15,228 nucleotides of DNA, taken from positions 1 through 15,228 of the forward strand of contig NJBF01000058.1 in NCBI GenBank assembly GCA_003144275.1. Direction: 5' to 3'. Positions 9,900 to 14,974 of the stretch are shown here, in pieces. The first letter of the stretch is position 1, and each line of letters opens with the position of its first letter. The position numbers and the translations under genes were made by a program. Below the pieces are notes generated by a model. That model was not told the DNA's origin. It searched no databases and saw nothing but the letters and a program-made list of their open reading frames with translations. The DNA comes from Candidatus Heimdallarchaeota archaeon B3_Heim (GTDB taxonomy: Archaea > Asgardarchaeota > Heimdallarchaeia > Hodarchaeales > Hodarchaeaceae).

Positions 9900-10757
9900 C
9901 TAACTTAGAGCAAGAAAATTCACTATTAACGAAATGGTGATCAGTAATAACATACCCATGGTAAGTTTTCTGGTTTTATGGACATACTCAATGTCATTAT
10001 GCTGGTTTATTAGCTTAAAAATGGGAACTAACACTAGCAATATAATAACATCTACTCCCCAGAAGAGAAGTGGAAATGAAACCCCTGTGATGAATAAAAT
10101 TCCATGATATAAGATGAAACTTAGTAAATAAAGACTAATCACTACCCAAGCGGCCTTTCTGGTGCCAAACACGACAGGGATGGTATTTTTCTCATTTTTT
10201 CCGTCCCCTTCCACGTCTGCTATGTCTTTATGCATTTCAAACGTGACTACCACGATGAATATTAACAGGAAGAATAATAGAATCTCAATTGATATCTTTT
10301 CTGGATTGGTCGCAAATACACCAACAAGTAGTGCGGATGAAATCCCGAATGAGGTCAGTATATTTTTCACTAAGAGTATATTTTTTAATTGCCACGAATA
10401 CAGCACAGATAAAATAGCTACACTTGCGGAAAGGAGAAATGAATAAAGGCTTAAGTAGAAAGCTAGTATTAACCCAAATATTGTTTCTAAACTGAATAGG
10501 ACTTTAGCTTCATTCACTGAAATTCCTTTTCTAGGAATGGGTCGATTAGGCTTTTCAAAAATATCAATCTCGCGATCCATAATATCATTTATTGTATTAG
10601 TACTGGCAGAGATGAAAAAACCTACCAAAAAACCAAAAATTAGACCCAACCTCAATGTTGGGCCTGTGGATGCGATAATCATCCCAAAAATGACGACTAG
10701 GCCCACTATTATGGAAGCTTTGAGGCGTGCTAAATCTGTTATTGCTCTTAATTCCAT
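9900..10757 (-). CDS. UbiA-family prenyltransferase, DGGGP synthase-like
   Basis: NDIMDREID...KPNRPIP (NDxxDxxxD) and HKDIADVEGD (KDxxDxxGD) Asp-rich motifs, about 8 TM segments. Exact substrate uncertain. Confidence 0.9.
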   Translation of the reverse strand: MELRAITDLARLKASIIVGLVVIFGMIIASTGPTLRLGLIFGFLVGFFISASTNTINDIMDREIDIFEKPNRPIPRKGISVNEAKVLFSLETIFGLILAFYLSLYSFLLSASVAILSVLYSWQLKNILLVKNILTSFGISSALLVGVFATNPEKISIEILLFFLLIFIVVVTFEMHKDIADVEGDGKNEKNTIPVVFGTRKAAWVVISLYLLSFILYHGILFITGVSFPLLFWGVDVIILLVLVPIFKLINQHNDIEYVHKTRKLTMGMLLLITISLIVNFLALS

Positions 10758-11006: not shown

Positions 11007-12512
11007 CTACATTTCTCGACCGAGGATTACAAACACAATAAATCGTAGTAAGAATATACCAAGACCCATGAGTATGATTATGAGGGTATAGTTTCTTTTA
11101 ACCATTTGTCTCCTTTCCGACATTTCCAGTTGATTGCTTGATTCAAAGTCAAATCTCACAAAACCTGGTGATCTTACTCCCTGTAACAGCTGATAATAAC
11201 TTATTATTATCAGTGCTAAGAGGATTATCCCCACTCCCGCTCCTAGAGGATTAAAGAGATCCGCAACAAAAGCTATTATTCCAATGAGGATATATTTTTG
11301 TGGGATTTCCTTTTCCTGTTGATTTTCAACACTTAAACCATGTATGTGCAATACTAATTTACTAAAACCTATGTACAATCCTAGGAAGATTCCACCATAG
11401 ATGATTGCTTGAGTGATCCATGATAATGGGTCAAAAAATAAGGAGTCCATTTGTCGGGGTGGGGAAAAGAAGTATCCGATTCCCCCGACGGGTATATATT
11501 GCTCGGTGATTACATCCAACCTGAATTGACCTAGAAAAAAAGCTATCACAGATCTGGAATTTTCACGACCGCTAGCGTTCCATATGAGTAGACTGGTAAA
11601 TCGGATCACCGCAAGGACGGTTGTTGTAAGCACAAGTGGAATTACTGGGTTACGTATTTTTCTAGCTGGCTCTAACGATTCTGGTTGGATCGTACTTGTT
11701 TTTATAATTTCCAAAAACACGACCAAGAAGAAAAATATTCCAGCAAGACAAACAGAGAGGATTGATAACGATGGTAAGTTCAATTTATGGGCTGGATTCG
11801 TACTATACCGAAAAAATAAGTTTCCAAATGCAGCAATTGGTCCTTCTTCTCCAACCCAGTAAAGAAAGGCCAAAACTATTCCTCGTCCCGAGGTAACACC
11901 ATTAGGCCCTTCTAAAATATTGTTTGGAGCGAACAGTCCTTGAAAGATCCGTAATCCAACGCCTCCTGCAATAAACATCGATATTCCTGAACCTAATCCC
12001 CATCCCCTGTTAACAATTTCGTCTAAAAGAACAATCAGAACTCCCACAATTGTCAGTTGTATGATGATAAATGATTGAGTGGTAATATCCAGACCCGATC
12101 CAAATATTCCTGAAAATGTTATTAGTAGAGCCATGACTATCGTAATGAGGAAACTAAGAAGGATCCTCAGTATATTATATCGATTTCGCTCTTCTTGATT
12201 TGCTATATCCATTTTAATAATGTTCATTCGGATTAACGTATACATTGTTAATCCTGCTATTAGTACGGGCAAAATCCCCAGTTCGGCAAGTGATCCATGC
12301 AATGAGGCACTAATCATTCGGATGAATGCAAAGGGATCACCTTCTCCTAAGTTTACGCCGAGTAGGGGAACCGCAGTGAATAATTGATACAGAAAAAATA
12401 TTGCTATAGTTACCACACATTTCGTAGTAAAATCTAATTTTTCCACTGGTCTTTTTATTTCTATTTTGTTTGAAAATCTAGATTTAATCCCCTCTTCATC
12501 TCTCGTCGTCAT
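11007..12512 (-). CDS. secY: Divergent SecY/Sec61alpha paralog with truncated cytoplasmic loops and an extra C-terminal TM helix
   Basis: IEIKRP.....F..K, DPF..IRMISAS..GSLAELGILP, LDEIVNRGWGLGSGISMFIAGG, GGIGYFFSPP, ADLFNPLGAGVGIILL. Ten SecY-like TMs plus one more. No ribosomal-protein operon context. Confidence 0.9.
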   Translation of the reverse strand: MTTRDEEGIKSRFSNKIEIKRPVEKLDFTTKCVVTIAIFFLYQLFTAVPLLGVNLGEGDPFAFIRMISASLHGSLAELGILPVLIAGLTMYTLIRMNIIKMDIANQEERNRYNILRILLSFLITIVMALLITFSGIFGSGLDITTQSFIIIQLTIVGVLIVLLDEIVNRGWGLGSGISMFIAGGVGLRIFQGLFAPNNILEGPNGVTSGRGIVLAFLYWVGEEGPIAAFGNLFFRYSTNPAHKLNLPSLSILSVCLAGIFFFLVVFLEIIKTSTIQPESLEPARKIRNPVIPLVLTTTVLAVIRFTSLLIWNASGRENSRSVIAFFLGQFRLDVITEQYIPVGGIGYFFSPPRQMDSLFFDPLSWITQAIIYGGIFLGLYIGFSKLVLHIHGLSVENQQEKEIPQKYILIGIIAFVADLFNPLGAGVGIILLALIIISYYQLLQGVRSPGFVRFDFESSNQLEMSERRQMVKRNYTLIIILMGLGIFLLRFIVFVILGREM

Positions 12513-13792: not shown

Positions 13793-14974
13793 TTATGTAT
13801 AAATTATGCATCCCTTTTCTTTCAGGAGAGTAAACCAGGATGGGATGGTTTTCAGTTGATTCCATCTCAAATCAAGTTTTTCAAGTTGGGGCAGGGAACC
13901 CATACTCGCTGGGAGGGAATGGAATCGGTTACCCCGTAAATCTATGTGAATTAGCTGATTTAAGCCTGACCAATCCTCTGGTAGTTTTTGGACCTTATTT
14001 ACCCGCAGATCAACCACTCTAAGTTCGTGAAGCTGATTGATAGTCTTTGGCAATTCTGTAATCTTATTCCCCTTCAGATACAGGTATTTTAATTTTCTAA
14101 GATTGCCTATACCACGGGGGAGTGTTTCAAGTTCATTATTTTGTGCGTGTAATTCTAATAAATTTTTGAGGTTCCCTAGTGTCTCTGGTAGAGTTTTTAT
14201 TTGGTTACCATACAATCTAAACTCAATTAAATTCGTAAGCTTCCCTATGCTCTCTGGTAATCTAGTAATTTTATTCTCGCTTATATTCAAATAGCGTAGA
14301 TTAGCTAATGTAGTAAGTGAGGGGGGAATCGATCGTAGATGACTATCGGCTACATACAAAAACTCCAAGGATTGTAACTGACTTATAGATTGAGGTATTT
14401 CTTCTAGTTTCCCATGGGCGATATCTAGGACTATTAGATCTTTTAAGTTACCTAACGATTTCGGTAACGTTGTATACGTATTTCCATCAAGATATAAATT
14501 GGTTAATCCCGTTAGGGTTCCAATCTTCTCACTTATTTCTTCTAATTGATTTCCTCCTCCTATATCTAATTCATTTAAATTTGTTAACCGCCATAACCCC
14601 TCAGGTAAGCTGGTTATTCGATTATTTCGCAATTTTAAATGTTTAAGGTTGGTTAGTCCACTTGTGCTCGCTGGGAGGCTTCTAAGTTGATTATCACTAG
14701 CAATTAGTTCTTCAAGTTCTTTCAGGTTCCCCAGAGTCTCGGGAAGCTCTGTAACCTTATTACTCGATATATTCAAATATTTCAAGTTACCTAACTTCAT
14801 AATACTCTCAGGTAATTGTGTGAAGTTACAGTGTTTGAGTGTTAGGCCAGTTACCTTTCCGTTTTCCTCATAAAATCCTACATCAACGCCAATGAGATCC
14901 TGGGGGGAAGCAACGTTCTTAAAGGGCTGATTTATGTGATCTCTTAGTTTCTCAATTATTTGACTAGGATTCAT
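13793..14974 (-). CDS. Stand-alone leucine-rich repeat protein (15 repeats of 23-24 aa)
   Basis: Repeats of LxxLxLxxNxLxxLPxxIxxLxx from aa 41 to about 385, with short N- and C-caps and no additional domain. Confidence 0.95.
   Translation of the reverse strand: MNPSQIIEKLRDHINQPFKNVASPQDLIGVDVGFYEENGKVTGLTLKHCNFTQLPESIMKLGNLKYLNISSNKVTELPETLGNLKELEELIASDNQLRSLPASTSGLTNLKHLKLRNNRITSLPEGLWRLTNLNELDIGGGNQLEEISEKIGTLTGLTNLYLDGNTYTTLPKSLGNLKDLIVLDIAHGKLEEIPQSISQLQSLEFLYVADSHLRSIPPSLTTLANLRYLNISENKITRLPESIGKLTNLIEFRLYGNQIKTLPETLGNLKNLLELHAQNNELETLPRGIGNLRKLKYLYLKGNKITELPKTINQLHELRVVDLRVNKVQKLPEDWSGLNQLIHIDLRGNRFHSLPASMGSLPQLEKLDLRWNQLKTIPSWFTLLKEKGCIIYT

Follow-up and report, generated by a model that had tools for sequence, protein, structure and literature searches.

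A divergent SecY paralog of Hodarchaeales archaea with a SecE-like helix fused behind its tenth transmembrane segment

A divergent paralog of the translocon subunit SecY/Sec61alpha, here called P0001, is encoded on a 15,228-nt stretch of DNA from Candidatus Heimdallarchaeota archaeon B3_Heim (assembly GCA_003144275.1, contig NJBF01000058.1; this whole stretch is referred to as the window). Sequence comparison shows that the C-terminal tail of P0001, a segment that ordinary SecY proteins do not have, is homologous to and co-terminal with a segment of the SecE (Sec61gamma) of its own lineage, and we read the paralog as a channel in which SecY and SecE are covalently joined and from which both ribosome-docking loops have disappeared as well. 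Universally, SecY and SecE are conserved as two separate subunits, the latter being regarded as what keeps the two channel halves together.

The C-terminal tail and its likeness to SecE

The genome has a single ordinary Sec61gamma/SecE, whose open reading frame (ORF) immediately precedes spt5/nusG and measures 68 aa, or 65 aa when counted from the second Met. In a BLASTP comparison the tail matches this protein with 11 of 21 residues identical and 18 of 21 positive (E = 2e-6). The alignment is ungapped: the last 21 residues of the tail, LMGLGIFLLRFIVFVILGREM, stand against the last 21 of SecE, ILGFIAFVIRFIIFVLLGREL, and both finish at the stop codon. As a control for composition, these 21 residues were scored, ungapped, against 2,462,051 windows of the six-frame ORFs of the whole genome. 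SecE was the best non-self match with a score of 66, the runner-up reaching 40. Among the 56,221 ORF ends of the genome SecE again scored 66, with the runner-up at 33, and none of 200,000 composition-preserving shuffles of the tail reached 66 (z = 6.4). Because SecE is the sole outlier in this genome-wide scan, Sec61beta or another small subunit was rejected as the source of the tail.

Profile methods lead to the same protein. When the ORFs of the genome are searched with a hidden Markov model (HMM) of 14 tails, the SecE ORF is the best match apart from the paralog itself, and hhalign aligns the tail profile with the SecE profile over 22 co-terminal columns (Prob 93.8, E = 1.8e-7; Prob 73.8 in a separate run). 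The search with the tail profile covered 24 genomes of the order; in G006, G004 and G005 the Sec61gamma gene adjoining spt5 is, SecY paralogs aside, the sole match at E ≤ 0.01 (E = 7e-6, 3.7e-4 and 6.2e-4, respectively). The genome's partner protein is, by its own profile matches, a true Sec61gamma/SecE: the lineage SecE profile matches human Sec61gamma (E = 1.9e-7) and Methanocaldococcus jannaschii SecE (E ~ 2e-5) in PDB.

Specifically, the tail resembles the variable SecE end of one Hodarchaeales subgroup (LIRF[IV]IFVILGREL) and differs from other Heimdall types, e.g. LIRLVIFGLILQNPV; with the SecE of one relative it has an exact 11-residue string in common. Since the match is to a subgroup-specific SecE end, the fusion can be dated within the Hodarchaeales lineage. 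The near-invariant arginine of the tail, R490, aligns with R54 of SecE, which itself aligns with K55 of human Sec61gamma. A SecE origin of the tail is, in our judgement, very probable.

The initial annotation of this DNA, made from its letters, had described an eleventh transmembrane helix (TM) after a TM10 ending near aa 443, joined to it by a 30-aa polar linker with a basic helix. The extra helix is borne out by the AlphaFold2 (AF2) model, in which TM10 comprises residues 427-444 and a further helix of 31 residues follows at 467-497, with a predicted local distance difference test score (pLDDT) of about 70-76. The linker is indeed polar; it measures 22 aa and is modelled as coil throughout (445-466), and the basic stretch belongs to the beginning of the helix at 467-497. 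The translation shows MSERRQMVKRNY, then the hydrophobic stretch LIIILMGLGIFLLRFIVFVILG, then GREM and the stop codon, which occupies positions 11007-11009 of the minus strand; codon 444 begins at 11183. In the established topology of SecY the end of TM10 is cytoplasmic, and six K/R lie within aa 445-475 of P0001. Because TM10 ends in the cytoplasm and the K/R-bearing linker fits a cytoplasmic location, the eleventh helix would run in-to-out, as in SecE, which agrees with the earlier argument that a SecY-SecE fusion is topologically feasible.

P0003, the genome's own housekeeping SecY, stops soon after TM10 and has no such extra segment, and the same is true of all other housekeeping Heimdall/Hodarchaeales SecYs. 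Conservation of the tail in close homologs, which had been proposed as a check, was found throughout: each of the 15 known members of the paralog clade has the eleventh helix. Within the clade the mean pairwise identity is 0.48 over the whole protein and 0.54 in the C-terminal half of the tail. In the linker motif F[VA]RFD, which has no counterpart in housekeeping SecYs, it reaches 0.85 among 12 paralogs. The extra helix is thus not a chance feature.

We also note a 151-nt contig from a sediment RNA (metatranscriptome) library that covers positions 11080-11230 of the window with one synonymous difference and so reaches from TM10 across the linker into TM11. As this independent contig spans the junction, the TM10-TM11 junction is contiguous in independent data. 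The same contig is a weak hint of transcription, DNA carry-over being possible. The gene's words occur in sequencing runs at shares of ≤0.17, on which no claim about habitat or expression is based, and a scan for sigma-70 promoters and terminators is uninformative for an archaeon.

The K-P hinge of SecE had been described as not evident. This is correct for P0001, which has ERRQMVKR at the corresponding place, but not for half of its relatives, since 7 of 14 tails have an aligned proline (EFKP, EFEP, DRKP, TKTP). The putative K-P hinge of these relatives is in register with KKPDRSE of SecE, given a 6-residue deletion (global hhalign, Prob 5.6, used for the register only), and these tails point to a SecE-derived stretch that starts at the K-P hinge. 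For one of them, P0012, AF2 predicts a helix at 459-467, a break at EFKPIK and a membrane helix of 25 residues at 474-498 (pLDDT about 88); as modelled, the P0012 tail is a SecE-like helix-hinge-helix.

Several results weigh against a fused SecE. The Pfam SecE family, PF00584, has no match on the tail at E ≤ 10, for three different cuts of the tail and also in the genome search, and at the same threshold the tail profile finds no SecE/Sec61gamma chain in PDB. A clade-wide SecE HMM scores the isolated tail at just 14.3 bits (E = 0.09, Z = 56,221), and the full-length paralog ORF is not among the 187 matches of this HMM to the genome's ORFs. In P0001 the recognisable SecE consists of the last 21-22 residues only; the most conserved parts of SecE (the amphipathic helix, KKPDRSEV and IKITAAGMAILG) are unrecognisable in the tail, and P0001 has neither a K-P nor a predicted amphipathic helix. 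In P0012 just a 9-residue helix precedes the KP break, and the tails have no similarity to the SFYKRALRIL segment of SecE. The tail ends are also degenerate in three members of the clade (P0008, the L019 copy and P0014), so the motif is not indispensable.

Taken together, the likeness to SecE/Sec61gamma that the initial annotation had proposed is upheld through the SecE of the paralog's own lineage, by BLASTP, window scan and profile-profile alignment, and not through that of M. jannaschii, to which it had been compared. The M. jannaschii string quoted there was correct, but a likeness to it is undetectable, and it does not carry the case because Pfam SecE and the solved SecE/Sec61gamma chains miss the tail. 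A SecE profile search of the tail, likewise suggested there, gave a positive answer with the lineage SecE profile and a negative one with Pfam SecE. Two other matches were set aside: an acetylcholine-receptor match of the tail profile in PDB (E = 3.8), which is spurious, and a synaptobrevin membrane-anchor match in Pfam (15.4 bits, cutoff 26.4), taken as a spurious helix match. The tail is rare: searched against 1.84 billion representative proteins, its profile found four clusters, all of them SecY paralogs, and no free-standing small SecE-like protein that might represent the state before fusion. The SecE profile found one 138-aa protein among longer proteins and no other fused form, which is weak evidence.

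The channel core and its lineage

The rest of P0001 is clearly related to SecY. The NCBIfam model for archaeal SecY scores it at 145 bits (E = 2.8e-42), far under the 300-bit equivalog cutoff, and PF00344 (Pfam SecY) at 66.8 bits in the genome search (cutoff 32.2); in PDB its best solved relatives are Sec61alpha chains (E = 1e-35). The AF2 model, built from an 87-row alignment with a mean pLDDT of 83.4 and a predicted template modelling score of 0.86, contains the ten SecY helices and a plug helix at 65-68, and Foldseek identifies the Sec61alpha/SecY fold (best match 7tm3_1, E = 8e-21). When aligned to human Sec61alpha, whose pore-ring residues we take to be I81, V85, I179, I183, I292 and L449, the corresponding positions of P0001 (I80, L84, I177, I181, V294 and L431) are hydrophobic in 6 out of 6 cases. 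The host genome, a 3.9-Mb assembly that is 94% complete, encodes the paralog beside the housekeeping P0003 (511 aa), to which P0001 is 44% identical.

This identity is unevenly distributed. Between paralog and housekeeping SecY it is highest at the plug and TM2 (0.6-0.67) and from the end of TM5 through the hinge to the start of TM6 (0.65-0.73), and lowest in loop 6/7 (0.08) and loop 8/9 (0.16). These two cytoplasmic loops of SecY dock the ribosome (or SecA). In the paralogs loop 6/7 (L6/7) is about 7 residues shorter and its YKGIRSTYPIKLLY block is gone, and loop 8/9 (L8/9) is about 28 residues shorter than in housekeeping SecY and human Sec61alpha; the conserved blocks that mark the ribosome-docking loops of the SecY family are thus lost from the P0001 core. 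Judged by these features, the paralog resembles a functional channel to which ribosomes can no longer dock. Conservation is mosaic: at positions 11763-12032 of the window (P0001 aa 161-250) the end of TM5, the hinge loop and the start of TM6 are about 90% identical between P0001 and P0003, and outside the hinge region the paralogs are 8-45% identical to housekeeping SecYs. The strongly conserved hinge is also the place where SecE is expected to clamp.

The 15 paralogs (14 metagenome or genome homologs and one extra copy in G006) include 13 full-length copies, with intact frames of 496-505 aa and 43-81% identity. In a quick LG+G4 tree, calculated with the tails removed and to be read with the usual caution about long branches, all 15 form one clade (Shimodaira-Hasegawa-like approximate likelihood ratio test, 100) with a stem of 0.91 and tips of up to 1.6, nested among very short-branched housekeeping Heimdall/Hodarchaeales SecYs. 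On this evidence the paralog is a fast-evolving protein specific to the Hodarchaeales (Asgard) lineage, where an intact copy is found in 3 of the 24 genomes of the order. Since the paralogs are one clade and all 15 have the eleventh helix, there was a single fusion, after a duplication of secY within the lineage. At the DNA level the tail and the 3' end of secE are 57% identical, with synonymous differences in shared codons, which argues for maintenance at the protein level and against both recent conversion and an assembly chimera. The fusion is therefore old and of single origin, and the tail is under purifying selection.

Individual copies depart from this pattern. G006 has three tailed copies (L022 6037-7557, minus strand; L023 5501-6988, plus strand; L024 5516-7024, plus strand). 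Two of its copies, P0008 and the one in L023, are without the GRE ending, and P0008 is also without the arginine, so the tail motif is relaxed in some copies. In G002 we found a remnant at about 1498-2129 of L014 (G002:C12), where tblastn recovers aa 289-383 and 409-495 of P0012 as pieces in separate reading frames. All that remains as an ORF is 74 aa long, TM10-like plus TM11-like; the paralog is degraded here. A 12-residue tblastn match near this remnant was checked and is not SecE.

A proposed clamp in cis and the alternatives to it

SecE packs diagonally across the back of SecY, where it contacts TM1, 5, 6 and 10. We propose that a C-terminal portion of Sec61gamma/SecE from the same lineage was fused in frame after TM10 of the SecY paralog. 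The basic linker of about 22 residues would remain in the cytoplasm after TM10, and the 31-residue helix would cross the membrane in-to-out and pack across the back of the channel, on its hinge side, tying the two channel halves together in cis. Such a channel would always have its own clamp, in a 1:1 ratio, without drawing on the single housekeeping Sec61gamma, and the clamp interface would be free to diverge alongside the fast-evolving core.

When the chain was split into core (1-447) and tail (448-501) and predicted as a complex, the score was 0.46 (0.40, 0.57 and 0.46 in the individual runs), with the best control at 0.00; at least 50% of the contacts agree between runs, and the partner pLDDT is ≥53. 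When the tool was calibrated, 58 of 80 solved complexes attained the mark, as did 2 of 110 mismatched pairs; scores of ≤0.60, however, came from just 7 of these 80 and from both mismatched pairs. The score may in part reflect likeness to SecYE complexes that have been solved. The prediction thus lends weak support to a packing of the tail onto its own core.

The strongest alternative accepts the SecE origin but not the position: the helix might dock in trans into another SecY, be it a housekeeping or a paralogous one, giving oligomers or competition with free Sec61gamma. It might also lie in some other place, with the paralog still recruiting free Sec61gamma. The homology of the tail to SecE is shown while its placement is inferred, and conservation in the tail is strongest at the external end of the helix, the same stretch that is conserved in the subgroup's housekeeping SecE. 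As the hinge is 65-73% identical between the paralog and housekeeping SecY, the tail could in principle fit either channel, and the complex prediction is weak. We nevertheless regard docking in trans or elsewhere as unlikely, since a 22-residue linker directly behind TM10 should entropically favour intramolecular packing, the tail helix has a pLDDT of 70-88 in the monomer models, suggesting a defined, packed position, and the controls with unrelated partners scored 0.00. A more radical objection would be that the helix is a generic membrane anchor that was added to the protein, its likeness to SecE being a matter of convergence or composition. The silence of Pfam SecE and of the SecE chains in PDB, together with the marginal HMMER scores, is what such an anchor would lead one to expect, and the weak synaptobrevin match shows that helices of this kind do cross-match. 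Composition is nonetheless a poor explanation for a scan of 2.46 million windows in which the genome's own SecE is the sole outlier (66 against 40) and which none of the 200,000 shuffles could imitate. Neither does convergence readily explain why both matching ends lie exactly at the stop codon, why the match is to the lineage-specific SecE variant, why the putative K-P hinge of the relatives is in register or why Sec61gamma is the sole non-paralog match of the tail profile (E ≤ 0.01) in three other genomes. We consider a generic anchor highly improbable.

It could also be argued that the paralog is a decaying duplicate without function and its tail the relic of a rearrangement, given the very long branches (stem 0.91, tips up to 1.6), the patchy distribution with intact copies in 3 of 24 genomes, the broken remnant in G002 and the disappearance of both ribosome loops. 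Decay is difficult to reconcile with intact frames of 496-505 aa in 13 full-length copies that are as little as 43% and at most 81% identical, and with conservation of the plug, the pore ring and the hinge. The C-terminal half of the tail and the FVRFD motif are moreover conserved above the average of the protein, and a regulator gene recurs beside the paralog; the near-identical contig in the RNA library points weakly in the same direction. A functionless duplicate is therefore very unlikely. The full proposal, a SecE-derived helix that clamps its own channel in cis, goes further than the origin of the helix, and we hold it to be reasonably likely.

Genomic context, probable role and known translocons

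Positions of the features of P0001, and of the regulator gene discussed below, are collected in the following table.

Features of the SecY paralog and its regulator neighbour (window coordinates unless another context is named)
Feature	Position	Strand	Basis
SecY/Sec61alpha paralog P0001, divergent, with fused C-terminal SecE-like helix	11007..12512	-	ORF, 501 aa
TM10, aa 427-444; last core helix that ordinary SecY also has	11181..11234	-	AF2; alignment to TM10 of human Sec61alpha and housekeeping SecY
Cytoplasmic linker, aa 445-466	11115..11180	-	AF2 coil, pLDDT 55-70
Linker motif F[VA]RFD, aa 451-455	11148-11162	-	conserved across clade
Eleventh helix, aa 467-497; membrane span preceded by a basic cytoplasmic start (RRQMVKRNY)	11022..11114	-	AF2
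Segment that matches SecE, LMGLGIFLLRFIVFVILGREM (aa 481-501); same C-terminal end as Sec61gamma of this genome	11010..11072	-	BLASTP, window scan, hhalign
Upstream neighbour: membrane-anchored regulator with N-terminal TM, HTH_HVO_0163_N and a second winged helix	12749..13570	-	Pfam
Regulator homologues elsewhere	L025 1396-2217; L005 7184-7762; L009 7095-7841; L022 7705-8292		

A homologue of the membrane-anchored regulator adjoins the paralog in five of eight contexts, from both subclades (the window, L025, L005/L006, L009/L010 and L022). It is the sole neighbour that recurs across the clade, sometimes co-oriented with the paralog and once divergent, and may control it. Other neighbours are more local. 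In the window a UbiA-family prenyltransferase gene lies downstream (9900-10757, minus strand) and a gene for a leucine-rich repeat (LRR) protein upstream (13793-14974, minus strand); this UbiA/LRR synteny is found only in the closest relative, G007, whose paralog is 80% identical (L018; L025 334-1173), and is gone in more distant contexts. A DUF6259 protein flanks the paralog in the contexts of P0007 and P0008 (L008 5553-7565 and L024 7017-8402, both on the minus strand), both of which are without a helix-turn-helix (HTH) neighbour. Genes of FtsX-type ABC transporters lie 0-5 kb away in the L005, L009 and L022 contexts. No motor or substrate gene is evident among the paralog's neighbours.

Because the plug, pore ring and hinge are kept while the docking segments of L6/7 and L8/9 are lost, a ribosome-independent channel is the most likely interpretation. 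Going by these sequence features, the role of the paralog would most likely be that of a separately controlled, ribosome-independent channel for the export or insertion of a subset of substrates. To our knowledge archaea have no post-translational Sec motor, and no SecA. That the ribosome-free paralog, switched on by the adjacent regulator, might constitute a dedicated post-translational route of export or membrane insertion in an archaeon is a more speculative idea, which we put forward as a tentative possibility.

A natural covalent SecY-SecE would be an evolutionary test of the idea that SecE holds the channel together, and structural and synthetic work would find in the paralog a minimal translocon that already comes as a single chain. 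An Asgard paralog without ribosome-docking loops bears on how specialised or ribosome-independent translocons originate by duplication, and on how archaea, without SecA, might export proteins post-translationally. The case also illustrates that curated family models overlook short fused subunits of this kind. In full-text literature searches neither a natural fusion of SecY with SecE nor an account of this paralog came up.

The closest point of reference is the archaeal SecYE-beta or eukaryotic Sec61 trimer (M. jannaschii 1RHZ, mammalian Sec61). Its core has the same ten-helix fold, plug, pore ring and hinge, and the membrane helix of its Sec61gamma/SecE is the homologue of the paralog's extra helix and has the same in-to-out orientation. 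The paralog differs in joining alpha and a gamma-derived helix in one polypeptide, in having no recognisable long amphipathic SecE helix and in its shortened L6/7 and L8/9; its gene is moreover a second copy, beside ordinary secY and secE.

Translocon paralogs are known from other organisms. Ssh1 of yeast is able to bind ribosomes and uses a shared, free gamma subunit, Sss1, in trans. Like the paralog described here, it is a version of the alpha subunit that exists beside the essential one (Sec61alpha paralog; 2WW9), but in the archaeal protein the gamma helix is covalent and the ribosome loops are gone. The accessory SecY2 of Gram-positive bacteria, part of the SecA2-SecY2 system, has SecE- and SecG-like partners, Asp4 and Asp5, as separate proteins, and exports special substrates post-translationally (PMC5076819). 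It is similar to the paralog in being a second, divergent SecY with small-subunit equivalents of its own instead of the housekeeping SecE and SecG. SecY2 differs in that it is bacterial and that a SecA2 motor of its own and its substrate, a glycosylated adhesin, are encoded next to it, whereas for the paralog no motor or substrate is identifiable and the neighbours are unconserved except for the regulator. Covalent extension of SecY has otherwise been achieved in the laboratory, with a SecY-SecA fusion (PMC5562318) and single-chain SecY dimers (PMC3432775). Since these engineered fusions to a partner extend SecY covalently, they make the design of a translocon in one chain plausible.

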